Source of the DNA: Armatimonadia bacterium
GTDB taxonomy: Bacteria > Armatimonadota > Zipacnadia > Zipacnadales > UBA11051
DNA length: 36,159 nucleotides
Direction: 5' to 3'
NCBI GenBank assembly: GCA_039683575.1
Contig: JBDKRC010000255.1
Coordinates: 1-36,159, forward strand
Every line of letters begins with the position of its first letter. Positions within the stretch are counted from its first letter, which is position 1. The notes below the pieces were generated by a model. It saw only the letters and a list, made by a program, of their open reading frames with translations, did not search any database and had not been told where the DNA came from. A program made the translations under genes and the position numbers. Below are positions 1,166 through 16,354 of this stretch, piece after piece.

Positions 1166-1194
1166 ATTATACCAGTTTTCGGCCCCGCAGGCAA
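1166..1194 (-). promoter_or_regulatory. Sigma70-type promoter for rpmE
   Basis: TTGCCT (1194-1189), 17-nt spacer, TATAAT (1171-1166), with extended TGn. Confidence 0.8.
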
Positions 1195-1275: not shown

Positions 1276-3738
1276 TCAGAGGTTGCTTCGCGATTTCGTG
1301 GCTGTTGGCTTGGCGGCAGCTTTCAGCTTGGCCGTCGCGGCAGGCGCCTTGGGCGCTGGCTTGTAGAAGGCCACGTAGCCGCCGGTTAGCTCCGCCGTGC
1401 CGAGGGTGCCCCCGAGGTTGGACAGCAGCATCAGCTTGCCGTTCTGGTTCACGGCCACGCCAATGTGCTGGTTGCGTCGCGGGCCATACGTGAAGGGCCA
1501 GACAAGAATGTCGCCCGGGCGAGCGAGGCCGTCCTTGCGGGCCACATAGCCCCGCTCAGGCAGCCGGTTCAGCCACATCGCGGCATCGCCCAGACCCCAC
1601 CCCAACGCCTCGCGCATCGTGCGGGCGCAGCGGTTCGGGGCATGGGTAACCCTCGCCGTGGCGAGCTTCTCAACTGCCTGCCCGATCTCGTTGTCGCGAG
1701 GATAGGTCAGTACGAGGTTGCCGAAGATGCCCGTGGTCATGCCCGAGGTGAAGCTCTCGCGCCACTTATGCAGTCGCGACAGCCGCATCGAGTTAACAGG
1801 GTTCTGCTTGGCCGCAGAGGCCTGCGCGTCCATCTCGCCAAGACGCAGCACTCCGACGTACTCGTCATCCTTGACCTGTCCGGCGTTGTCCTGGGCAGGC
1901 CCCAGTTCAGGCGGAATGATGGGGAAGAGGTCATACGCCGCCCTGCTTGTCTGGGCTGAAGCGACTTCCTCCACGGCGGGTGCCAGCGGATCGGCCTCAT
2001 CAATTTCTGTCAACGGGGCTGCCAGTACCAGCCACTCCAGGGAGGCATAGGTATCATCCGGGCAGTAGCCCTCACGGGCCACGACAATCATCTCAACGCG
2101 CGCCAACCCAGTCTCAACGACGGGCTCAACACTATTGATGAACCCCTCGAGCGTCACGCCAGGGTAGCTGTCGAAGCTGACGCGCACCGGCGCGCCCTTG
2201 GGGAAGTTCGCCACATCTTTCGGATCGATGTCGCTGTAGACACGGGCCCACTCGCGGTTCGCAACCTCCAAAAGCGGCTGGCCGGGCTTGACCTGAGCGC
2301 CTGGCGCGGCGATCTGGCGAACCACGAGACCGTCACCGGGCGCCGACTGGTCGATCCAGCGAGGGTCGGCCAGGCGCTTGACTTCCTGCGGCACCGACGG
2401 GATCTCAGATTGAGACTGCAAGGCGAAGCGGGGAGAATCCGAGCGCGGTAGCCGCCGCAGTTCCGGGCGCGGGCGTCGCGTCGGTGACGGGAAAGACTCC
2501 GCCACACGCGGTGTAGCTGCCCGGCGCACGTAAGCCGGAGCTTCCGCGGCACGTCGCGGACTCGGCGCAACCGCCGCCTGATGCGCGGGCTGGCGTACCA
2601 CGGCCTCGGCCCGCGCGGCCAATGTCGCCGCGCTCGAGCGCGCCTGGCTTACTTGCTCGTCAAGCTGGTCCTGCAGCGCGGCTACACGCTCTGTGGCCAT
2701 CTCGCGGGCATGAACGGCCTCTGAGCGCTTGCGTTGCAGATCCTGCACTTCGTCACTGAGCGAGGAGACCTTGGCCTGCGCAGACTCGTACACGTTACGC
2801 GCGAGCACGCCCTGGTTGTACAGGCGCTCACGCGCGGCGGCGTCGTCCTTGGCTGCAGCCAGGTCTTCTTGCGCCCCGTCCAATTGCTTGTCAACCCGCG
2901 CCAGTGACTGCGTCAACTCGCTAACGCGGTCATGGGCCTCTGAGAGTTCGTTGGTAAGCCGCGTGACGCTGCGTACCGATGAGGATTGTACGGCTTTGCG
3001 TTCGGCTGACGGCGCTGGGGGCAGTGCGGCGAGCCCATTGGCTGGTGCCAGTGCCGAATGCGGAGCCTGGGCAGTGAGATCAGCGCGCGGCGCGGGACCA
3101 AGTGTGGCCTGCGGGGCGACTGCAACCCTACGTGGGGCCGGACGGATGCCCAGCAGGCGCTGGATGGCCGTCGGCTTCGGAAAGTCAGCGGGGGGCAAAG
3201 GCGGAAGGCCAGCCTGCCGCGGCGCGATGACGAACGGACCGTTGGCAAAGCGCGACATGGCGCTCTCGCCGATTTTGAGGTCCGACAGAATGCCGAGATC
3301 ATACAGCCGCACGAGCGGCTGCCCGGCGCGCGTCAGACCGTCGCCACTATACAGGTACTCGACGACGCCCGCGGCCTGCGCCCGGATGACATAGAAAGCG
3401 GTGCGGCGCATGGCCTGCTCGGGATCGATGCGTCCCTTGCCAACCTCAACCCGCCCCACCGGCATCCGCGACAGGGACTTCGGCTCGGGCAGCGCAACCA
3501 GGGCGTGGGATGGCTTCTGCCGTGCCTCGACCGGCACAGGGCGCTTGGCCCTGGCAGAGCTGCCCCAGGCCTCGGGGAGTTCGTCGGCAAAGGGTGAAGG
3601 GGTGACCGCAGGCGTAGCGGGCGGCAGAGCCGCCTGCAGGGGTGCAAGACACAGTAGAGTGATTGCCAGCGCAGGCAGCAGAAAGCGCCCGAGCGTGACG
3701 CGCGTTTGGTTCTTCATGTTGTTCTTCATATAAGACAA
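1276..3738 (-). CDS. Secreted HlyD/membrane-fusion-protein-like protein with C-terminal CHAP/NlpC-P60-like domain
   Basis: Signal peptide (..LLCLAPLQA); split lipoyl-like motifs (IRAQAAGVV..RAGQPLVRL and SAPGDGLVV..VKPGQPLLEV); coiled coil with RERLYNQGVLAR; beta-barrel-like segment (GAPVRVSFDSYPG..EGFI); C-terminal NRCART..PGDILVW..QHIGV. Exact start uncertain (TTG 3738 or nearby ATGs). Confidence 0.75.
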   Translation of the reverse strand: MSYMKNNMKNQTRVTLGRFLLPALAITLLCLAPLQAALPPATPAVTPSPFADELPEAWGSSARAKRPVPVEARQKPSHALVALPEPKSLSRMPVGRVEVGKGRIDPEQAMRRTAFYVIRAQAAGVVEYLYSGDGLTRAGQPLVRLYDLGILSDLKIGESAMSRFANGPFVIAPRQAGLPPLPPADFPKPTAIQRLLGIRPAPRRVAVAPQATLGPAPRADLTAQAPHSALAPANGLAALPPAPSAERKAVQSSSVRSVTRLTNELSEAHDRVSELTQSLARVDKQLDGAQEDLAAAKDDAAARERLYNQGVLARNVYESAQAKVSSLSDEVQDLQRKRSEAVHAREMATERVAALQDQLDEQVSQARSSAATLAARAEAVVRQPAHQAAVAPSPRRAAEAPAYVRRAATPRVAESFPSPTRRPRPELRRLPRSDSPRFALQSQSEIPSVPQEVKRLADPRWIDQSAPGDGLVVRQIAAPGAQVKPGQPLLEVANREWARVYSDIDPKDVANFPKGAPVRVSFDSYPGVTLEGFINSVEPVVETGLARVEMIVVAREGYCPDDTYASLEWLVLAAPLTEIDEADPLAPAVEEVASAQTSRAAYDLFPIIPPELGPAQDNAGQVKDDEYVGVLRLGEMDAQASAAKQNPVNSMRLSRLHKWRESFTSGMTTGIFGNLVLTYPRDNEIGQAVEKLATARVTHAPNRCARTMREALGWGLGDAAMWLNRLPERGYVARKDGLARPGDILVWPFTYGPRRNQHIGVAVNQNGKLMLLSNLGGTLGTAELTGGYVAFYKPAPKAPAATAKLKAAAKPTATKSRSNL

Positions 3739-4786: not shown

Positions 4787-7270
4787 ATGCGTTGGCTTCT
4801 TGCAGCATTACTCATCACGGTACTAACCGCTGGCTTTGCGGCAGCGGACCTCGCTGTAGTTCAGGACGGGCAGGCGAAGGCTCAGATAGTCATCGCCTCA
4901 GCGGCCCCCGAAGCCGTCGAGGCCGCCGAAGCCCTGCAGAAGTACTTCCGGGCCATGAGCGGCGCAGAACTCGGGCTGGTGCCCACCGAGCAGCAACCCG
5001 CTCAGTTCAAACGCCCCGCTGGCCCCGCAGTAATCGTGGCCGCCCCCGAGTACCTCAACGCGCTGGGGCTCCCTGCCGCCACCGCCCTTCTCGCGAAGGT
5101 CCGGGACGATGGCTTCATGATCTGGTCCGATGGCAGCCAGACCGTCGTAATCAGCGCCAAGAAGCCCACAGCCCTGGTCTTCGCCGCCTATGAGCTCCTG
5201 CAGAAGCTGGGTTGCCGCTGGTTCTTCCCTGGCGAACTGGGCGAGGAGATACCGCAACTGAAGACCATCCGCCTCAGCGCCCTCGCCGAGGTTCAGAACC
5301 CCGGCATGGTTGACCGCAACATGTGGTATGCCTACGGCGGCCGCCCCGACTGGCAGAAGAACGGCTACCTGCTCTGGCGCAAGCAAAACCGCATGGGCGG
5401 CCTTGGTTTCAGCGCCGGGCACAATCTCGCGCGGATCGTCCCGCCCAGCCTCTATGCAACCCACCCGGAGTACTTCCCCCTGCAGGGCGGCAAGCGCGTG
5501 AACCCCACCGAGAGCAACAACTGGCAGCCCTGCACGAGTAACCCCGAAGTCATTGCGCTGGCCGTGGCGGCCGCTGACGCGTATTTCAAGGAGAACCCTG
5601 ACGCCTCGAGCTTCTCGCTCTCGCCCAACGACGGCTACGGCTGGTGCGAGTGTGACAACTGCAAGGCCCAGGACCCGGCCGACCAGCGCCAGCAGCGCAA
5701 CCAGTACAAGGGCCGCCGCACCCTTCTCTTCGTCAACGCCGTTGCCCGGCAGATCGCCCCGAAGCATCCCGGTAAGTACCTGGCCTGGTACGCTTACGCC
5801 GGAACGGTCGAGCCTCCCACCGACGTACGGGCCGAGCCGAACGTTCTCACCTCATTGGCCCACTACGGCTACTGCGGCTGCAATGTGCATCCCATGGCCG
5901 ACCCGAACTGCCCGCTGAACGTGAAGTTCATGGGCATCATGGACGGCTGGAGCAAGCAGGCCGACAAGCTGATGATTCGCGAGTACTGGAGCATGCTGTG
6001 CCCCGAAGAGGACGCCATGGGCCGGATAGCCACGGCGTACGCCCTGGCCGAGGACATTCCACTGCTGGTCAAGCGGGGCTTCATCGGCGCGAGCGCCGAG
6101 AGCGAGCCGGAATGTGGTTCCTCCGCGCTCAATTTCTACCTCGCCGCCAAGTTCATGTGGAATTCCGAGCAGTCGCTTGAACCGATTCTGGCAGACTACT
6201 ACCAGGGCATGTACGGCCCAGCCGCCAAACCCATGCGCGACTTCTTCGAGGGGATCGTGGGGAAATGCCGCGAGCGCAACCACCGCGGGAATTTCTTCAC
6301 CGACGAGGAGTACCCGGCGATGGCCGCCGAGATTGAGAAGATCGCGCCCCTTGCCGCCACCGACAAGCAGCGCGGGCGCATCAAGATGACGCAGGACTTC
6401 GTGAAGTATACGACGCTCTTGCACCAGTACAATCTCAAGCCGACCAAGGCGTTGCGTGAGGAGATCGACGCCTTCGTCGCCGAGGTTGAGCGCCAGCAGC
6501 TATTCACCATGGACACGGTGATGCACAAGGCGACCTTCAGCAAGCGCAGCAGCGCCGCGGCAATCAAGGAAGCCGAGAAGCTGGCGGTCAAACCAACTCG
6601 TCTCGCCGTACCGGAAGCCCAACTCCTGCCGAAGCTCGCTCAGGCCGCCCCGACAGCGCGCGGCAAGCACGTCTTTGCCCTGTTGGTAGCACCAGGGGAG
6701 GGTCTGGAGGCCACCGTTGCCGTCCGCCGCCTGGGACGCTACACCGTCCCGACCGCATGGGCGCTGGTCGGCCCCGACGCGAAGCTCCTCCAGCAGGGAG
6801 AGGCCACGATTGAGGAGCCGACGGTAATCTCCTTGCCGCAGGCGCAGCCGGGCACCTACACCATCGTGGTAGACAGTGGCCAGAATGCCTGCCGGGTTAC
6901 CGCCAAGAACCGCGGCCTCTCGCTTGTGGGTCAGCAGTTCGACCTGCTCGGCGGGCAGCCCGTTCAGTATGTCTACGTCCCGGCCGGCACAAAGAGCTTC
7001 AGCGTGCGCCTTGAGACCGGCGCGCCTGGTGAAACAGGAATGCTGGTAGTGCTGGATCCGTCCGGAGCCAAGGTAGCGGAGGGCGACACCACGCAGACGG
7101 GCCTCGTCGAACTCAAGGTCACAGTCCCAGACGGCATGGCCGGCAAGCTCTGGCAGATCCAGATTGCTCCGGCCCCGACGGGCGTCATGGAAGACCTGAA
7201 ACTGAGCCTCGGTGAGGGCCTCGCACCCTACATAGCCGTCGAGCCCGCCAGATTGCTAATCTCCGAGTAA
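4787..7270 (+). CDS. Secreted DUF4838-type protein (glycoside-hydrolase-related) with C-terminal beta-sandwich extension
   Basis: AGGAGGA RBS; signal peptide; GH67/GH20-like N-domain (AAEALQKYFRAMSG, LGCRWFFPG); HPEYFPL, QPCTSNPEV, SLSPNDG..WCECDNC and YAY motifs. Confidence 0.8.
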   Translation: MRWLLAALLITVLTAGFAAADLAVVQDGQAKAQIVIASAAPEAVEAAEALQKYFRAMSGAELGLVPTEQQPAQFKRPAGPAVIVAAPEYLNALGLPAATALLAKVRDDGFMIWSDGSQTVVISAKKPTALVFAAYELLQKLGCRWFFPGELGEEIPQLKTIRLSALAEVQNPGMVDRNMWYAYGGRPDWQKNGYLLWRKQNRMGGLGFSAGHNLARIVPPSLYATHPEYFPLQGGKRVNPTESNNWQPCTSNPEVIALAVAAADAYFKENPDASSFSLSPNDGYGWCECDNCKAQDPADQRQQRNQYKGRRTLLFVNAVARQIAPKHPGKYLAWYAYAGTVEPPTDVRAEPNVLTSLAHYGYCGCNVHPMADPNCPLNVKFMGIMDGWSKQADKLMIREYWSMLCPEEDAMGRIATAYALAEDIPLLVKRGFIGASAESEPECGSSALNFYLAAKFMWNSEQSLEPILADYYQGMYGPAAKPMRDFFEGIVGKCRERNHRGNFFTDEEYPAMAAEIEKIAPLAATDKQRGRIKMTQDFVKYTTLLHQYNLKPTKALREEIDAFVAEVERQQLFTMDTVMHKATFSKRSSAAAIKEAEKLAVKPTRLAVPEAQLLPKLAQAAPTARGKHVFALLVAPGEGLEATVAVRRLGRYTVPTAWALVGPDAKLLQQGEATIEEPTVISLPQAQPGTYTIVVDSGQNACRVTAKNRGLSLVGQQFDLLGGQPVQYVYVPAGTKSFSVRLETGAPGETGMLVVLDPSGAKVAEGDTTQTGLVELKVTVPDGMAGKLWQIQIAPAPTGVMEDLKLSLGEGLAPYIAVEPARLLISE

Positions 7271-9565: not shown

Positions 9566-10828
9566 TTACGCAACGCTCCCGGTCAGACTAACCTTCTCGC
9601 AGTTCACCTGCTTGACTGTCTCGGCCATCGTGCCCGCAGGATCGGTGAACACGCACCCGCTCACCGCCACCCTGTCGCAGTCAGTGAGGCTGATTGCCAC
9701 GCCACGGGTATTGCGGAAGCTGCACCCGCTGATGCTCAGCCCGGTGCAGGCCTCGGCGGTGATGGCCCCCTCACAATTCTCCGCCACGATGCCACTGATC
9801 GCGCATCCGTCAACCTGCCGCAACTCAATCCCGCCCGGCGTCACGCCGTAGTCCGGGTTGTTATCCAGAATAGTCGCATTGATTGCGATATGCTCGCAAT
9901 TCTCGGCCACGATATTGCGCCTGTGTCCTGACACATGCGTGTTGTTGCCGAGTACGATCCCACGTGCGTAGCGGCACAGGATGTTAACTTCCTGGCTGCT
10001 GATCAGGTTGCCGCTGACCGTCAGCAGGCCCACTTTCAGCATATTCTGCGCATTGATCCCCTCGAGCCGCACATTGGCCCCATCCGGCGTCGGTGTGGCC
10101 TGAATGGTATTGCCGCAGATGGCGCCCTCGCGGATCCCGATAGGCCCCGCGATGAACCACACATCGCCCGCCGGCCCGGTCTCATCGTCAGGATCGCGGT
10201 TGTACTCGATGTCGTTGCCCACAATCTGGACGTTCCTGACATTGCCCTCGACGATCTTGATCCCGCCGCGGAAGTTGTAGCTGATGTGACAGCCGTGGAT
10301 GTTGATCTGGTGCAGGTTCACATCATCGAGGAAGACGCCGATGCCGTAGTTGTGGTACACATGACAGTCCGCGATGATGATGTTGCGGTTGTGGTTCGGG
10401 ATGTGAATGCCATGCAGGCACTCGCGGACAGTCACCCGCGAGATGATAGCCATGTACGTGTGCTCGAGCCGGATACCGTCACCTCCGGCGCTGCTGCCCA
10501 CGATCTCAATGTCCGACACGAGCGGCATCAACTCCGCAGCACCCACCTCCGGGGTCAGTTCCTCCGGGCTGGCGCTGCCTTTGTGGGTCCCGATGATGTG
10601 CAGCGCGGGCTCGTCGGAATAGTTCAGAAGCCGCGCACCGGCAGACCGGATGAAGGTCTGCTTCCGCTGGTCCAGGCGCACCTTCAGGCCAGTCCCGAGG
10701 CGATAGTCGCCCTGCGGGAAGAAGACGATCCCGTGAGTCTCGTCCAGCGCGCGTTGGATCGCCGGGCTGTCATCGGCCTCCCCGTCGCCGATGGCGCCGA
10801 AGTCTTTGACGTTGATGTAGTTTTCCAT
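9566..10828 (-). CDS. Right-handed parallel beta-helix protein (pectate-lyase superfamily)
   Basis: INVKDFGAIGDGEADDSPAIQRALD..FFPQGDY start, then repeated I..C/N.I..N..G beta-helix units; no signal peptide; AGGAG RBS. Confidence 0.85.
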   Translation of the reverse strand: MENYINVKDFGAIGDGEADDSPAIQRALDETHGIVFFPQGDYRLGTGLKVRLDQRKQTFIRSAGARLLNYSDEPALHIIGTHKGSASPEELTPEVGAAELMPLVSDIEIVGSSAGGDGIRLEHTYMAIISRVTVRECLHGIHIPNHNRNIIIADCHVYHNYGIGVFLDDVNLHQINIHGCHISYNFRGGIKIVEGNVRNVQIVGNDIEYNRDPDDETGPAGDVWFIAGPIGIREGAICGNTIQATPTPDGANVRLEGINAQNMLKVGLLTVSGNLISSQEVNILCRYARGIVLGNNTHVSGHRRNIVAENCEHIAINATILDNNPDYGVTPGGIELRQVDGCAISGIVAENCEGAITAEACTGLSISGCSFRNTRGVAISLTDCDRVAVSGCVFTDPAGTMAETVKQVNCEKVSLTGSVA

Positions 10829-10852: not shown

Positions 10853-13800
10853 TCAGAACCCTACCGTGACCGTCGCAGGGGTGAAGCTCGCACTGGCGGT
10901 GGCCCCACTGCAGACATCCCGCACGGTGAGCTTCCACGTCCCCTGCACGTCGTTCAGAGCCATCAGGAAGCTGCCAGCGACGGGCTTGCTGCCGAGGATG
11001 AGGTTGCGGGCGTAGTCGCGATATTCCTTGCCGTCCGGCCCCGTCACCGTCAGCCGCACGACCTGCTTACGGTTGTCATTGCCATTCTTCAGGCTGACAT
11101 TGTAGCGCACTACCCCTCCAGCCTTCTGCAAAGGCTCTGCAAGCGTGAGTTGCGGTGCCGCGAGCGGCTCGGGCGACAGGCAGTACACTCGCGCCTGCTG
11201 GCCCTCAAACGTCGTCTTCACTTCCTGGCGCTTGCCCAGCGCTTCGCCCTTCCGCATGTCATAGACATACCAGTTCACTGGCAGCTTTACCGTCGCCAGT
11301 TCGTCCTTGTCCCCGGGTCCGCGCTGCAGTCCCAGATAGATCAGGTCCCAGGCCCGATTCCGTGTCACTTCCACATTCGCAGCCTGCCCCGAGGCAAACT
11401 GCACTGGGTACTGGGGCTTCACGCCCGCGCCGCCCACAATCGCGAGCAGGATGGCCCGGATCTGCTTCTCGCCGGGGCTGTGGAACGTCCGCTCGCTCTC
11501 ATACGGCCGCAGGTCAGCGTTCAGGTACCACGCCTGCCCTTTGCCGACCTTGTTCTGCAGCAGAGCCGGTGCCTTCGATGCACCAGCCGAAGTCGCGCCA
11601 GCGGTTGCCCCCGCGGCTGTGATCGCCTCTGCTGCGCTCAGCTTCACCTCCGGGGCCTCCGCGCCCGGCACGGTGACATTCAGCCCGAGCGTTGTGTCCG
11701 GCTGCCCGCCCCGCTGCAGCCCGAACAGGCTGTCCAGCATCCCCGGCGACTGCTTGCGGCATAGCCCGTCCAGCACCCCGACGTTGTAGTCGGCGATAAC
11801 CGTCCCGCCATTCTTGACGAAAGTCCCCAACTCCGCCTTTTCCTTCGCCGTAATGGCGAAGGACTCGGGCAGAATGACCACCTTATACCGCTCAAAGTCG
11901 TTCTTCGGGTTGTTGAGCAGCCCGCTCTCGATCTGCTCGGTCGCCACGAAGTTGTACTGCAGCCCGCAGTCTTCCAGCAGCTTCACCCACACGTCGCGCA
12001 CGTCTTTGTGCTCTTCCTCTTTCGAGAGCAGTTGCGCCCCATTGATGGCCGCCTGGCTGTAATGTATGGCTATGCCATCATGCTGCCACGAGCCCGCGCG
12101 GACCTGATCCCAGATACCCTTCCGGAACTCCTCGCACAGCGCCAGAGTATCCCGGCCGGACTCGCTGAAAGTGAAGTCGTTGTAGTAGAAGATCGAGGTC
12201 GTCCACGCGCTGACGCTCTGCGTGTCATGCAGCAGACACCAGAACATGTTGTACTCAATCTGCCGCCCCGCCTGCCAGTAGCCCGCGTAGTACGGCGTCT
12301 GCTGCACGCCGGTATACGGCGCGAAGGAGCGCCGCATCTCGTTCGACCAGCCCGTATTGTAGGCATGGTAGTAGTTGAAGCCCCTGGACATCTTCCACCA
12401 GTCCATGCCGTTGCCGGCCCGCGGCTCCTGGGTGCCCGAGAGCCCCGCCCGCGCCGCCGGGTCAACCTTCTTCAGGTTCTGCTCGACCTCAGCACAGAAT
12501 CCCGCCATCGTGTCGTTCATGAACTCCCGGAACTCCGCCCAACCAGCCGCGTTGTCACGGGCCTTGGCCTCATCGAGCGTCAGCGGCATGACCTCGTCCC
12601 AGGTCGGGTAAGTGGTGTCCCAGGCCTTGTTGAGCGCCTCGACCGACGCGTAGCGCTTCTTCAGCCACTCCCGGAAGTCCGCCAAACTGCGCGGGTCGAA
12701 GTCGAAGTCATAGTACCGCGTATAGTGCGTCAGGCTCATCTCGTCGCCCATGCAGTAGTCGTACGGACTCCCGAGCGCGAGGTCGTCCTTCGCTACCTGT
12801 TCCATGCGCGCCATGACCTTCGCCCGCCACTCGCGGTCCGCCAGCGACGGCGTGCGGACCAGGTACTGCTTGTCCTTGGTCTGTTGGTACTTGGCCGACT
12901 TGCCGGCGAAGTCTTTCTCCATGAAGTCCGCGACATCTTTGCCCATGTTCCCGAGCAGGCCCAGATGCGCGTAGTTGATGTTGTGCCACAGGTTCTCCCA
13001 CGTCTTCCCGTTACCGGTCTCGACGCTGCCACCGAAGGCAATATCAACCAATGCCTCAACCCGCGGCGCGAGGTGCTCGTTCAGGTACTCCGACCGCCAG
13101 GGGAAGATCCCATTCCAACTCGTCAGCTTGAATCGTTCCCAGTCGCGCGGCGCCACACACAGCACCTTCGCATACGCCACATCGGTCTGCCCCTGCGGCC
13201 CTGCCGCAACGACCTGCCACTGCAGTCCCTGCGACCGCAGTTCCTGCGGATTGGCCGTGAAGGTCTGTTCCTCCAACCCACCCAACGGCCGCGTCTCCTG
13301 CCACAGCAGTCGCCCATGCGTGTCAGTCAACTTGGCGCTCAGCGAGTACCCGGCCTGCAGCGGCGCCAGCCCGTCCAGCGCCACCGTGAGCTTCAGCGGC
13401 TCCGTCGGGGCAAACGCCACATCATATAGCTGCCCCTTCCGGTCCGCCCGCGTGCCCATGACTGTCGTCTTCTCAGGCGTCAGTGCCTTCACCGCCAGCG
13501 GTGCCGTCGTCTGCACATAGGTCTGCGCCCACGCCACATGCGCCCCGGCTGGATTGCTGACGATCACATTCACCGTGTTCAGCCCTGCCGGCAGCGTGGC
13601 CGGCACGGGTATCCGCACCTCGGCCTCCTCGCCGTGTCGCGCCACTTCGGCGCCCGGTAGTGCTTCCCCCCACCGGTTGCGGAAGTCCGCCATGACCTTC
13701 AGTTCGCCTGCGGGCGCCTTCAGACGCAGCAGCACCTCCGCCTTCTCACCATACCGGTGCTCTCTGAGAGGCTCAAGCGATACCAAATCCACTCCCGTAT

Positions 13801-16264
13801 CCCGCTTCGCCGCCCACGCCGACAGCCGCGCCAGCAGCGCATAGTATGGCTCCCAGTACTCCCAGGTCATGTTCTTGTAGTCATCGCGCAGGAACGCGCC
13901 ACGGTACGAGAAGATGGGGATCAGCCCGGCGTAGCCCCGGTACGACATCGCATGGGTCAGCGTGTCATACGTCAGCACCGCCGTCCGCCCCTCGCCGAGC
14001 TTGTTGGTCACCAAGAGCGGCTTCCCGTCCTCCCACGTCGCCAGGACCTGCCCGGTGGGCTCGGAGGTATAAGACATGCGCCGCGTAGGAGGCAGGATAT
14101 CCCACGGCAGCCCCGCCGTCAGTGGCGAGGCCTCCGTCGGCAGCCACTTGCTGTAGGCCCACATGCTGCGATCCTTGGCCACGCCCAGGATCGGCGCCAG
14201 CTCTTCGCCGTCTTTCACGCCATCCGGCTCAATGGCAATCAACCCCGCCCCCGCCTTGACCTGCTCCATCAGCGCCGCCCGCGTCTCGGGCTTGAAGTGC
14301 GTGTTCCAGTTGAACCCCGAAATGATGAACAGGTCGTACTTGTTGGCCTTCAGATAGTCCAGCAGGCGCTTGTTGGCCTGTTCCGGCGTCGAAATCGAGC
14401 GGTCTCCGCAGTACAGTTCCTCGTCCCAGAACATGGTCCGGAACTTCACATACGTCAGGTCCATCTGCAGCCGCTGCTTGAGCTCGATTACCTCGCGGGC
14501 CACAAAGTCATCGCACAGCACAATCGCCTTGATAGGCCCACCTGCCAGCGGATTCCCCCACGGGACGTGCGGTGTCACCACCTCATCGCTCAGGTCATGG
14601 CGCGGCAGCGCCACCTTCTCCTCCGCGCCCAGCCCGACGCGCTCTTCGAGCGGCTTGCGGGTGTATGCGATCTGCCCGCCGCCCCGGCTGAAGGGCCGCT
14701 CGAAGTCATCCAGCACCCTCCCGGCGCGGCTGAGCTGCACGTTCACCACGTACGACCCCGCGGCCAGCGCGCCCAGAGCCCCCGACGTCTCGCCAGGCTT
14801 GGCCCCTGTAACCTCAAACCCCGCTACTGGCCGCCAATCCCCCTGCGGCAATGACCGGAAGCGAATGTTGGCCTGCACCGGCGCAGAGGCCGGATTGGCC
14901 AGTTGCACCCGCACCGTCACCTTCGTGGGCTCGGCGTCGTTGTCAAAGCTGATGCTGCCGATGGCCTCGCCCACGACCCCATCCACCCGCGCCTGCCCCG
15001 CAAAGGGCAGCAGCGTGACATCTGTCTCGAAAGACTGCCCGGCCTTCAGCGGCATCCGGTTGTAGCGCCACTCGTGCGTGGCAGTCGGGCTCCCGACCCC
15101 TGCCCAGTGGTACACGCAGTTCAGGTACTTGAAGTCCATCGTCGCGGCCAGTCCCGCCTTCTCGCTGCAGACCGCCGTCCAGCCCCGGGCCAGGTTGTAA
15201 TGCCACACATCGCTCTGCTTCGGGGCCTTGCCGGGCTCGAACACGAACTCCTTCACGCCCTCCTCGGTGGGCGTGTAGTACCGGTTGGTCTGCCCCGGCA
15301 CCCCCAGGAAGTTGTGGCCCCACAGTCCGTACGTGTAGTCGGTCTGCGAAGACGGCTCATTCTGCAGCTTGTAATGCACCCGCACCACCGCGCTGTCGCG
15401 GCTGATCTCGACGCGCTTGGTGAGCGTGGTGAAGCTCATCATCCCGCCCGCCCCCGTCACCGACAGCTCCACCCACGCGGTCTTGTCGTCTCCGCCCATG
15501 CGGTAGCTGTAGGGCCGCTCGGCGAACATGTATGGCGGCGCCCAGAGCTGGTCCCGCAGCAGTCCATACCCCGCCCCCCCCGACCCCACCAACTCCGCTT
15601 GCGCGGGCTTATACAGCAAGCTCCGGCACATCCCGCCGCTCAGCGGGCCGAACACCAGCCGGATCACTGAGTTCTCCAGGATGACATCCGGCTTGCCGTC
15701 CTTGTCCACGTCAACCTCACGCGCCGAAGGCTTGGCATCGTTAACAAGGGGGATGGTGATCTCCGGCGGTCCCTGCTTGGTGGCCACCGAGCCAAACAGC
15801 TCTATCTCGCCAATCGACAGCAGCCCCGAGGTGTTGAAGACCAGCCGGAGCTTGTCGGTTGTGGTAGTGAAGTCTTTGACTTCCAGCTTGAAGTTGCTTT
15901 CCTGGGTCGGCCCCCAGAACCCCGTGCCGGTGCCCAGATCGCGGTAGTTGCCAAACTCCAGCGCCTGCACCGTCCACTTCGCCAGCTTGTAGTTGTTATT
16001 GGGCCGCGAGACGTGCACGGCCACCCCGGTCACCTGTGACGCCTGCGCCAGGTCCAGATCGAGCGTGATCGTCCCGCCGGCATAGATCACGCGTTTGGTG
16101 GTGACGCCGTCAGCCAGGTCGCGCCCGGTCTTGTCCGTCCAGTCGGCGCTCAGGTACCTGCTGTCTGTGCGGTAGCCCCACCCGTCCAGCTTGGCCGCGC
16201 CCTGTGCGAAAGCCGGACTGAGCAGTACAGCAATAAGGAACACCCCGAGAATGATCTGGCGCAC
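10853..16264 (-). CDS. Giant secreted multidomain GH42/beta-galactosidase-like protein (~1800 aa)
   Basis: AGGAGG then GTG at 16264; signal peptide; FREWLKKRYASVEALNKAWDT GH42-like motif; GDE; trimerisation-like domain (YKVVILP..FVKNGGTVIAD); discoidin-like N-terminus; Ig-like C-terminus. Confidence 0.75.
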   Translation of the reverse strand: MRQIILGVFLIAVLLSPAFAQGAAKLDGWGYRTDSRYLSADWTDKTGRDLADGVTTKRVIYAGGTITLDLDLAQASQVTGVAVHVSRPNNNYKLAKWTVQALEFGNYRDLGTGTGFWGPTQESNFKLEVKDFTTTTDKLRLVFNTSGLLSIGEIELFGSVATKQGPPEITIPLVNDAKPSAREVDVDKDGKPDVILENSVIRLVFGPLSGGMCRSLLYKPAQAELVGSGGAGYGLLRDQLWAPPYMFAERPYSYRMGGDDKTAWVELSVTGAGGMMSFTTLTKRVEISRDSAVVRVHYKLQNEPSSQTDYTYGLWGHNFLGVPGQTNRYYTPTEEGVKEFVFEPGKAPKQSDVWHYNLARGWTAVCSEKAGLAATMDFKYLNCVYHWAGVGSPTATHEWRYNRMPLKAGQSFETDVTLLPFAGQARVDGVVGEAIGSISFDNDAEPTKVTVRVQLANPASAPVQANIRFRSLPQGDWRPVAGFEVTGAKPGETSGALGALAAGSYVVNVQLSRAGRVLDDFERPFSRGGGQIAYTRKPLEERVGLGAEEKVALPRHDLSDEVVTPHVPWGNPLAGGPIKAIVLCDDFVAREVIELKQRLQMDLTYVKFRTMFWDEELYCGDRSISTPEQANKRLLDYLKANKYDLFIISGFNWNTHFKPETRAALMEQVKAGAGLIAIEPDGVKDGEELAPILGVAKDRSMWAYSKWLPTEASPLTAGLPWDILPPTRRMSYTSEPTGQVLATWEDGKPLLVTNKLGEGRTAVLTYDTLTHAMSYRGYAGLIPIFSYRGAFLRDDYKNMTWEYWEPYYALLARLSAWAAKRDTGVDLVSLEPLREHRYGEKAEVLLRLKAPAGELKVMADFRNRWGEALPGAEVARHGEEAEVRIPVPATLPAGLNTVNVIVSNPAGAHVAWAQTYVQTTAPLAVKALTPEKTTVMGTRADRKGQLYDVAFAPTEPLKLTVALDGLAPLQAGYSLSAKLTDTHGRLLWQETRPLGGLEEQTFTANPQELRSQGLQWQVVAAGPQGQTDVAYAKVLCVAPRDWERFKLTSWNGIFPWRSEYLNEHLAPRVEALVDIAFGGSVETGNGKTWENLWHNINYAHLGLLGNMGKDVADFMEKDFAGKSAKYQQTKDKQYLVRTPSLADREWRAKVMARMEQVAKDDLALGSPYDYCMGDEMSLTHYTRYYDFDFDPRSLADFREWLKKRYASVEALNKAWDTTYPTWDEVMPLTLDEAKARDNAAGWAEFREFMNDTMAGFCAEVEQNLKKVDPAARAGLSGTQEPRAGNGMDWWKMSRGFNYYHAYNTGWSNEMRRSFAPYTGVQQTPYYAGYWQAGRQIEYNMFWCLLHDTQSVSAWTTSIFYYNDFTFSESGRDTLALCEEFRKGIWDQVRAGSWQHDGIAIHYSQAAINGAQLLSKEEEHKDVRDVWVKLLEDCGLQYNFVATEQIESGLLNNPKNDFERYKVVILPESFAITAKEKAELGTFVKNGGTVIADYNVGVLDGLCRKQSPGMLDSLFGLQRGGQPDTTLGLNVTVPGAEAPEVKLSAAEAITAAGATAGATSAGASKAPALLQNKVGKGQAWYLNADLRPYESERTFHSPGEKQIRAILLAIVGGAGVKPQYPVQFASGQAANVEVTRNRAWDLIYLGLQRGPGDKDELATVKLPVNWYVYDMRKGEALGKRQEVKTTFEGQQARVYCLSPEPLAAPQLTLAEPLQKAGGVVRYNVSLKNGNDNRKQVVRLTVTGPDGKEYRDYARNLILGSKPVAGSFLMALNDVQGTWKLTVRDVCSGATASASFTPATVTVGF

Positions 16265-16354
16265 GATGAGCCTCCTGAAGCAGTAAGGGCGGCATAGCTT
16301 ACGCAGGCGAATATTGCTCCAGGTCACGCCCAATCACCTTCTCTTGCCTTCCCG

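Follow-up and report, generated by a model that had tools for sequence, protein, structure and literature searches.

An orphan periplasmic adaptor fused to a papain-fold Cys-His domain in one lineage of Armatimonadota, with a possible role where tripartite pumps cross the cell wall

The stretch of DNA analysed here (the window) is the whole of contig JBDKRC010000255.1, 36,159 nucleotides from the genome of an Armatimonadia bacterium (assembly GCA_039683575.1, the source genome), and our subject is a single gene at 1276–3738 on its reverse strand, which encodes a periplasmic adaptor with a predicted Cys-His hydrolase at its C-terminus. Contigs of the source genome are cited below as C numbers (the window is C255) and locus records as L numbers. 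An earlier note on this DNA, made from the sequence alone, had read the gene as an HlyD-like adaptor fused to a CHAP/NlpC-like cysteine hydrolase, and the open reading frame (ORF), the codons of Cys704 and His758 and the sequence around them are as described there. The ORF has 820 codons plus a stop codon and gives 820 amino acids (aa) when read from the TTG at 3738; a public gene call (P0002) takes the ATG at 3717 as its start, for a protein of 813 aa. Four parts can be recognized in the protein. An export signal comes first, and a lipoyl domain split by a long alpha-hairpin, a beta-barrel and a C-terminal papain-fold domain follow (Table 1). The mean predicted local distance difference test score (pLDDT) of the full-length model is 76.

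Table 1. Coordinates of the features of the adaptor–hydrolase gene in the window and, in the last three rows, of repeat-protein genes in pump operons (positions under the locus named)
Feature	Residues	Position	Strand	Remark
Whole gene		1276..3738	-	start TTG 3738 or ATG 3717
Export signal	8-36	3631..3717	-	basic n-region, hydrophobic core, LQA/A; probably cleaved, judged by eye
N-terminal stretch	37-87	3478..3630	-	Pro/Ala-rich, poorly conserved, low model confidence
First lipoyl half	88-170	3229..3477	-	strand 88-99, first lipoyl (barrel-sandwich) half, helix 149-166; from model
First disordered linker	171-252	2983..3228	-	Pro/Ala/Arg-rich, low conservation, many gaps
Alpha-hairpin	253-381	2596..2982	-	helices 253-308 and 314-381, pLDDT ~95
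Hairpin tip	301-320	2779..2838	-	A302-x3-L306-x6-A313 where adaptors have R-x3-L-x6-S
Second disordered linker	382-444	2407..2595	-	Pro/Arg-rich; pLDDT <50 over 383-444
Second lipoyl half and beta-barrel	445-556	2071..2406	-	Pfam above cut-off; EmrA by sequence and fold
Connector	557-666	1741..2070	-	helix 563-573, acidic stretch, strands 584-593 and 618-635, helices 637-664; from model
Papain-fold CHAP/NlpC-P60-like domain	667-795	1354..1740	-	most conserved part of the protein
Cys704, predicted nucleophile	704	1627..1629	-	N-terminus of helix 704-712; invariant
His758, predicted general base	758	1465..1467	-	start of strand 758-765; invariant
Asn774 (with Ser773), candidate third triad residue	774	1417..1419	-	after strand 768-773; role from position only
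C-terminal tail	796-820	1279..1353	-	Ala/Lys/Pro-rich, unconserved
W-x-V-I-G-D-G-Y-V-P protein, L083		2871-3191
W-x-V-I-G-D-G-Y-V-P protein, L085		2782-3207
W-x-V-I-G-D-G-Y-V-P protein, L094		2796-3374

A search of 5.8 billion proteins gave 76 homologues at E ≤ 0.001, the full-length ones being 30–63% identical to the query, and 64 of these together with the query form the 65-row family alignment to which the counts below refer (11 shorter or partial matches and the window's own copy were left out). The N-terminal sequence has basic residues, then a hydrophobic stretch (residues 13–36) and then LQA/A, and residues 12–29 are a helix in the full-length model. A hydrophobic N-terminal segment is present in 52 of the 65 family members, commonly with an Ala-x-Ala-type site after it, and the 13 that lack it look like shortened gene calls. 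Judged by eye this N-terminus looks like a cleavable Sec signal rather than an anchor of the kind found in adaptors.

Residues ~88–556 are a three-domain periplasmic adaptor of the EmrA/HlyD/MacA kind, with a lipoyl domain, an alpha-hairpin and a beta-barrel. In the model the lipoyl domain is split, its strands 115–146 and 461–494 flanking the two hairpin helices, and in the family alignment G124, R144 and Y146 of its first half are invariant. Pfam matches over residues 462–543 exceed their cut-offs (HlyD_D23 38 bits against 30, HlyD_3 39 bits against 22.2), and across the family HlyD_3 is found in 65/65 members and HlyD_D23 in 61/65. TIGR01843 type_I_hlyD matches the hairpin (residues 256–382), this and the other NCBIfam adaptor matches all being below threshold. 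The only PDB sequence match of the full protein is EmrA (4tko, E = 5e-4), and EmrA also heads the Foldseek list obtained with the full model (2.1e-9), followed by EmrAB-TolC, MacAB-TolC, HlyD, MacA, ZneB, AcrA and MexA. In the structural alignments EmrA covers model residues 115–556 and HlyD and MacA cover 113–495, the other rows being generic helical hairpins; a search of the ESM Atlas returned generic adaptor look-alikes at 0.84 only, which is under that resource's own trust level. No alignment in the full-model Foldseek search extends into residues 557–666, where a membrane-proximal domain might be sought, and EmrA itself is described as having none in the accessible part of a review (PMC4446572). 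The connector carries an acidic stretch, TEIDEADPLAPAVEEV, at about residues 577–592, and its helices are confined to the fused form, as standalone relatives of the C-terminal domain (see below) match from about residue 676 onward. Thus the signal peptide, the split lipoyl domain around a linker-expanded hairpin, the beta-barrel and the acidic linker listed in the earlier note were all found again, by sequence, Pfam and model.

The hairpin is joined to the adaptor body by two Pro-rich tethers of 60–80 residues each, and pLDDT is below 50 over most of the first of them (residues 173–182, 189–191 and 199–252 within 173–252). Such linkers are seen in only one of the 11 HlyD-type genes of the source genome, namely this one. 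The tip is the best-conserved part of the hairpin, with an identity of 0.53 against 0.2–0.3 in the rest of it, and its residues stay in register (L306 in 65/65, G310 in 64/65 and Ala at position 313 in 51/65). At the corresponding place MacA, AcrA and HlyD carry the RLS motif, R-x3-L-x6-S, which mediates docking to TolC according to the accessible part of PMC3391258. The motif is a frequent rather than a strictly defining feature of adaptors, because the part of the review PMC4446572 available to us calls it non-universal; the exact pattern is present in three of the 10 other adaptors of the source genome (C157, C330 and C24). These 10 are 399–774 aa long and three sequences that were read show long Pro-free helical stretches. 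From such a reading the MacA-like adaptors of the source genome appear to have helical stretches of ~300 residues, and in principle a hairpin of ~60 residues per helix on tethers of 60–80 residues could reach a similar distance. As a separate observation, the source-genome pump adaptors at C157 16204–18081 (625 aa), C330 2007–3905 (632 aa) and C24 233–2557 (774 aa) are unusually long, their long Pro-free helices suggesting long hairpins and perhaps a wide periplasm; that of C24 also has an HMBD-like Cys motif near its C-terminus.

The C-terminal domain is a papain-like Cys-His domain of the CHAP/NlpC type, a superfamily of Pfam clan Peptidase_CA, and it looks catalytically intact. Identity in the family is 0.75–0.88 over residues 701–780, against 0.2–0.5 elsewhere in the protein. 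The catalytic context reads NRCARTMREALGWGLGDAAMW ... PGDILVWPF ... QHIGVAV. Cys704 and His758 are invariant in all 65 aligned members and in 25/25 of a wider set, Asp743, Ser773 and Asn774 are invariant in both sets, and Gln765 and many Gly and Trp residues of the domain are likewise invariant in the 65-row alignment. A model of residues 615–800 built from the family alignment has a mean pLDDT of 83.8 with a core above 90. When this was compared with 48,161 chains by VIA, a search that is independent of Foldseek, rows 1–46 of the best 50 were all NlpC/P60, CHAP or related papain-like amidases. The best of them (4xcm, Thermus thermophilus) gave Z = 9.6, a root-mean-square deviation of 3.2 and 104 aligned residues, where best Z values of 7–8 are common in VIA for models without a true match. 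Further rows are CwlO (Z = 9.2), LytE (9.1), Tae3 (8.8), the CHAP domain of LysGH15 (8.0), PcsB (6.6) and the RipC–FtsEX complex (5.0). A C39/PCAT-type peptidase was considered and rejected, as it reached only Z = 4.7–4.8, far under the wall hydrolases. The top Foldseek rows of the domain are weak, and comprise Tae3 (E = 5.5e-3), PlyPy, a P60 domain, RipA/B and CHAP domains. At E ≤ 0.01, 49/65 family members match CHAP (best 7.1e-6), and two standalone relatives exceed the CHAP cut-off of 26 bits (28.7 and 26.8 bits); NLPC_P60 (PF00877) gave no match to the fused protein at E ≤ 1. Where the family profile aligns with NlpC/P60 chains of the PDB the alignment falls on the PGD and H-x-G motifs, including that of the catalytic His, and in a profile–sequence comparison the His motif and the order of the motifs also align with the clear CHAP domain (76.7 bits) of a distant relative, P0125. 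The fold call has its weight from how uniform the VIA list is and from its agreement both with the CHAP matches below threshold and with the conservation of Cys704 and His758. P0125 itself (1120 aa) has two tandem CHAP domains, the first with Ser in place of the catalytic Cys, followed by Big_2, dockerin and cohesin domains, and looks like a cellulosome-style surface protein.

The fusion is a genuine, conserved gene of one Armatimonadota lineage. All four modules are present in each of the 65 aligned members. In a sample of 201 genomes of the phylum Armatimonadota a near-full-length fusion was found in 10 of the 14 other genomes of the same order (1/1 of the same family and 9/13 further ones) and in none of the remaining 186 (4 of the same class and 182 others), which show only generic adaptor similarity (E = 1e-6 to 1e-10). 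Within the order most genomes have the fused gene once. In one genus (g6) both the fused and the standalone form are missing from 3/3 genomes. When one genome of each species (185,579 species) was scanned by pattern and tblastn, 54 loci came up, every one from Zipacnadia-type Armatimonadota metagenome-assembled genomes (MAGs) or from MAGs with less specific labels, and inspection of their ORFs showed that 41 are fused and that the other 13 either are standalone or run off the end of a contig. An assembly chimera, which the earlier note had named as a way in which it could be wrong, is ruled out by the recurrence of the same architecture in 64 aligned homologues from many assemblies, in 10 of 14 genomes and in 41 loci. 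The search for homologues with the same fusion that it proposed thus came out in its favour, as did the expected conservation of Cys and His, and the homologues' neighbourhoods, described below, are without a pump. Public records name these proteins 'efflux RND transporter periplasmic adaptor subunit', 'HlyD family ...' or 'hypothetical', from Armatimonadota or Candidatus Zipacnadales; such names miss the enzyme domain and imply a role in a pump for which the gene's surroundings give no support. In the accessible parts of the literature searched no account of a fusion between an adaptor and a CHAP/NlpC-type domain was found, which agrees with the remark in the earlier note that no characterization of this architecture was known to it.

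The enzyme domain also exists on its own. When the 186-residue C-terminal region was run exhaustively with HMMER against 1.84 billion representatives, 59 proteins were found at E ≤ 0.001, made up of fused forms, standalone proteins of ~170–290 aa and a few distant large proteins, and the family of this domain is therefore narrow, being found so far only in this Armatimonadota lineage. The source genome has one standalone paralogue (G000:C267:10655-11260, L002 1252–1857, + strand) of 201 aa with its own signal peptide, which is 53% identical to residues 677–795 and scores 20.7 bits with CHAP; the queries used picked up neither an RND gene nor a metal gene on its contig. This copy and the 13 standalone or contig-end loci make a standalone set of 14, and in six of these (L083, L084, L085, L089, L090 and L094) the gene lies downstream of an RND gene on the same strand, as the last or near-last gene of the operon. 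The weak case is L084, in which the RND-like gene is a 171-aa ORF (2.4e-7 to the source-genome RND protein, 4e-53 to that of L090). Pfam scores of RND genes are 661 and 733 bits (ACR_tran). In four of the six loci (upstream cuts L098–L101) the gene immediately before the RND gene encodes an adaptor, and an OEP homologue ahead of that adaptor was confirmed in two (L100 and L101); in L098 an ORF of OEP size without detected similarity precedes the adaptor. In between, the operons also encode small secreted Cys-rich proteins with two or three repeats of W-x-V-I-G-D-G-Y-V-P, for which no Pfam family match was obtained (Table 1). The same motif is sometimes fused before a standalone C-terminal domain, standing at the N-terminus of the L084 protein and of P0095.

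In a maximum-likelihood tree of 57 C-terminal domains the standalone and fused forms are split at 100/100 support, with the RND-linked members scattered through the standalone clade; two rows with short high-scoring segment pairs were dropped, distant outgroups sit on very long branches and the root of the tree is not established. It seems that one hydrolase family became associated with tripartite systems in two separate ways, through fusion to an adaptor and through linkage to pump operons.

These operons bring in a different explanation, namely that the enzyme is an amidase or peptidase acting away from the wall, on a gamma-glutamyl or thiol peptide or a metal-handling protein that the adaptor would deliver to an efflux system. 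This has in its favour that the standalone paralogues lie in heavy-metal clusters, with RND genes, an intervening heavy-metal-binding (twin-HMBD) protein that scores 100 bits by Pfam (HMBD) and, following the C-terminal-domain gene of L083, a P-type ATPase for heavy metals; that glutathionylspermidine amidase, a member of the CHAP superfamily, is among the fold matches (Z = 5.6–5.7); and that the family is too divergent for a substrate to be inferred from sequence. The fold matches nevertheless favour the wall, as the best 40 are wall hydrolases or wall-directed effectors with the exception of three (ranks 12, 33 and 36) of other or unstated function, and other amidases score lower in VIA than wall hydrolases. 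One relative has a bacterial SH3 match before its C-terminal domain (26.3 bits, just under the 27-bit cut-off), and no RND, HMBD or P-type ATPase homologue was found in the flanks of fused copies in any of 52 locus records (the 41 fused loci with ~4-kb flanks, the window itself and 10 loci cut more widely, several of them repeating genes already among the 41). We regard a non-wall substrate as improbable.

Around the fused genes no pump component was seen. The 36-kb window has no FtsX, MacB_PCD or OEP family match, and tblastn with the MacB, ABC, OEP, RND and FtsE/X proteins of the source genome found nothing in it, in agreement with the statement in the earlier note that a transporter partner is lacking here. 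The same tblastn on 10 orthologue loci (flanks up to ~9 kb) found nothing but one ABC ATPase ~5 kb away (L031). Clustering of the neighbours at 11 loci revealed nothing common to them, the best non-self cluster (DUF1559/prepilin-like) being present at three. In the window the gene has a xylose-isomerase-like TIM-barrel gene upstream and rpmE and a DUF1385 gene downstream. Such surroundings would suit a general housekeeping autolysin, in which the adaptor-like module would serve as a spacer or as a wall-binding or oligomerization device at a set depth of the periplasm, with no connection to a pump. The absence of pump genes from the 52 records and of a common neighbour from the 11 loci, the single copy in most genomes of the order and the housekeeping genes that adjoin it here all point that way, as do the lack of the RLS motif, the flexible linkers and a genome with only two NLPC_P60 matches and no canonical CHAP match. 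What an autolysin leaves unexplained is that the full three-domain adaptor and its conserved tip are kept in 65/65 members, and that the standalone hydrolase recurs at the ends of OEP–adaptor–RND operons. We think this explanation rather unlikely, though it deserves to be kept in view.

It might also be asked whether the protein is an antibacterial toxin, a Tae-type amidase exported against competitors, since the best Foldseek row of the C-terminal domain is the type VI effector Tae3 and Tse1/Tae1 is also in the lists. Housekeeping NlpC/P60 enzymes match as well or better, no conserved neighbour that might be an immunity protein was found at the 11 loci, and the gene is single-copy across the order with a Sec signal, so that we consider a toxin very improbable indeed.

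The other adaptors of the source genome put the orphan position in context. Seven of the 10 other HlyD-type genes adjoin a transporter or OEP gene (C157, C330, C347, C123, C245, C24 and C54), and three have no transporter among their scanned neighbours (C323, C297 and C56), which refutes the idea that the fused gene is the only orphan adaptor in the genome. These three HlyD_3-bearing orphans (C323 31778–33211, C297 9498–11294 and C56 15462–16661) have as neighbours sugar epimerases, a cytidylate-kinase-like gene with a GH123, and a thioredoxin.

At C3 13235–17573 (L042) the source genome has a canonical cluster of ftsE, ftsX (FtsX_ECD), a coiled-coil gene (CC_PcsB plus Peptidase_M23) and ctpA (S41/PDZ), and at C307 1361–3557 (L043) a MacB-like permease (MacB_PCD plus FtsX, 454 aa) and an ABC ATPase, with no adaptor match on the contig. 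(Three large ORFs of 612–695 aa precede that permease; two were scanned and gave no Pfam match.) The fused protein could in principle be a hydrolase controlled by a type VII ABC transporter of the MacB/FtsEX type encoded elsewhere, as PcsB, CwlO, RipC and EnvC are, with ATP-driven movement through the coiled coil or adaptor body releasing an auto-inhibited catalytic domain. A complex prediction of the hairpin (residues 250–384) docked on the C-terminal domain (615–800), in the manner of the PcsB clamp, scored 0.00 and 0.12, the mark being 0.32, and speaks neither for nor against such docking. A coiled-coil hairpin followed by a CHAP/NlpC-P60 domain is the layout of PcsB, and MacA-type adaptors bind MacB, according to the accessible part of PMC8277102; in addition PcsB, CwlO and RipC–FtsEX are among the fold matches, and the MacB-like permease and ATPase on C307 are without an adaptor. 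Against this, the division ftsE-ftsX pair already has its own CC_PcsB plus M23 gene and ctpA, there is no CC_PcsB match in the fused protein, and no FtsX or MacB homologue was found near any locus examined. We set aside a replacement partner of FtsEX as the main interpretation because the genome has this complete cluster, and control by an ABC transporter in general seems to us a poor prospect.

The interpretation we favour, and would put at about an even chance, is that the protein is an exported, adaptor-targeted peptidoglycan hydrolase that acts where pumps cross the wall. It is drawn from the fold family, the invariant catalytic residues, the complete adaptor with its conserved tip and the two independent genomic links to pumps, all of them results of computation, and it suits a genome in which at least seven adaptor loci adjoin transporters or OEPs. 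The protein would be exported by Sec to the envelope, presumably with its signal cleaved, and would there have two working parts. The adaptor module, in whatever oligomeric state, would be both address and scaffold, joining or docking beside the adaptor or outer-membrane-duct parts of tripartite pumps, and in this way the hydrolase would be placed where the machine must pass the peptidoglycan and would make local cuts in peptide stems or cross-links. As no one pump operon holds the gene, a single orphan protein would serve several pumps. A wider claim, that the lineage has a dedicated family of wall-opening enzymes for tripartite pumps, as an orphan-adaptor fusion able to join any pump and as the last gene of OEP–adaptor–RND operons, we regard as doubtful although possible.

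Several results weigh against the role we favour. With regard to the enzyme, the Z value of 9.6 is only modestly over the VIA background, Foldseek of the C-terminal domain against the PDB gave nothing at E ≤ 0.001, the protein's own CHAP score (PF05257, residues 709–768) is 19 bits against a cut-off of 26, and the family profile reached NlpC/P60 chains of the PDB only at E = 0.2–0.3. With regard to the adaptor, the RLS motif is not kept, Arg being found at position 302 in 0/65 members and Ser or Thr at 313 in 8/65, and a rigid sealed funnel is hard to reconcile with a hairpin that is flanked in the model by flexible linkers; taken together the tethered hairpin, the tip without RLS and the signal-like N-terminus speak against a classical sealed adaptor. 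With regard to the pump, a pump gene stands beside the fused gene in 0/52 locus records, and the orphan position is not unique to it because the three other HlyD-type genes named above are also orphans. The RND operons are of the heavy-metal type and the standalone link could concern metals and not the wall. Finally, the adaptor part of the fusion does not have its closest relatives among the RND-operon adaptors, which are nearer to other adaptors of the source genome, so the two pump links did not come from one rearrangement; an origin of the fusion from an RND-operon adaptor is for the same reason unsupported.

On balance the overall interpretation of the earlier note is partly supported. 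Its two-domain reading holds, given Pfam adaptor matches over cut-off, the EmrA match and the uniform VIA list. Of the roles it offered as examples, division has become less attractive, as the FtsEX cluster has its own M23 gene, and the opening of the wall for a trans-envelope machine has gained indirect support from the standalone paralogues at the ends of OEP–adaptor–RND operons. Both parts of the protein come from known superfamilies; what is new is a narrow, lineage-specific hydrolase family with a double linkage to tripartite pumps. If it is indeed a dedicated wall opener for pumps it would be the first known peptidoglycan hydrolase specialized for efflux or type I-like machines, and would touch on an open question, the passage of such wide pump assemblies through the cell wall, for which the adaptor–hydrolase fusion and its pump-operon sister clade provide a concrete candidate enzyme. 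Should the link to pumps be wrong, what is left would be an autolysin mounted in a new manner, its scaffold being an adaptor whose hairpin is tethered; the interest would then be moderate and limited to a single lineage that is uncultivated.

Other features of the window are mentioned for completeness. Upstream of rpmE there is a promoter-like site at 1166–1194 (- strand; TG present, 10 of 12 positions matching), and this gene is therefore probably independent of read-through from the adaptor–hydrolase gene. An ORF of 1826 aa at 10853–16333 (- strand) has GH42 beta-galactosidase-like and DUF7408 matches, and elsewhere in the window genes of glycoside-hydrolase-like and beta-helix type are common (4787–7270, DUF4838; 9566–10828, beta-helix/NosD).

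Among known systems the adaptor part is most readily compared with EmrA (4tko), HlyD and MacA, with which it shares the alpha-hairpin that splits the lipoyl domain and the beta-barrel that follows. A membrane anchor is usual in periplasmic adaptors. Unlike these three proteins, the fused protein has a probable cleavable signal in place of the anchor, disordered Pro-rich linkers to the hairpin, an A-x3-L-x6-A tip, a C-terminal enzyme domain and no partner genes nearby. The C-terminal domain resembles CHAP/NlpC-P60 hydrolases such as 4xcm, CwlO, LytE, RipA/B and the LysGH15 CHAP domain in having its Cys at the N-terminus of a helix and its His on the sheet that follows, with the same order of motifs (Cys helix, GD-hydrophobic strand and H-x-G strand; Z = 8–9.6), but unlike them it is very divergent in sequence and forms a narrow subfamily. 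CwlO of Bacillus subtilis and RipC of Mycobacterium tuberculosis share the coiled-coil plus hydrolase layout of PcsB from Streptococcus pneumoniae. Like these, the fused protein combines a long helical hairpin with a predicted Cys-His wall hydrolase after it, which would act outside the cytoplasmic membrane, whereas its helical part sits within a complete adaptor (lipoyl domain plus barrel) and has no match to CC_PcsB. In the accessible part of PMC8277102, PcsB-type hydrolases are described as partners of a transporter superfamily that also uses MacA-type adaptors. No wall-cutting enzyme for tripartite efflux or type I systems was found in the literature searched, as far as its accessible parts go.

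Other wall-crossing machines do have such enzymes: FlgJ for flagella, EtgA and VirB1 for type III and type IV secretion, and TagX and MltE for type VI secretion, which are mostly lytic transglycosylases or muramidases. To our knowledge none of these is built on an adaptor protein, and we know of no dedicated wall-cutting enzyme for tripartite pumps. What the present family would have in common with them is the concept of a hydrolase brought by fusion or by operon linkage to a machine that crosses the wall.

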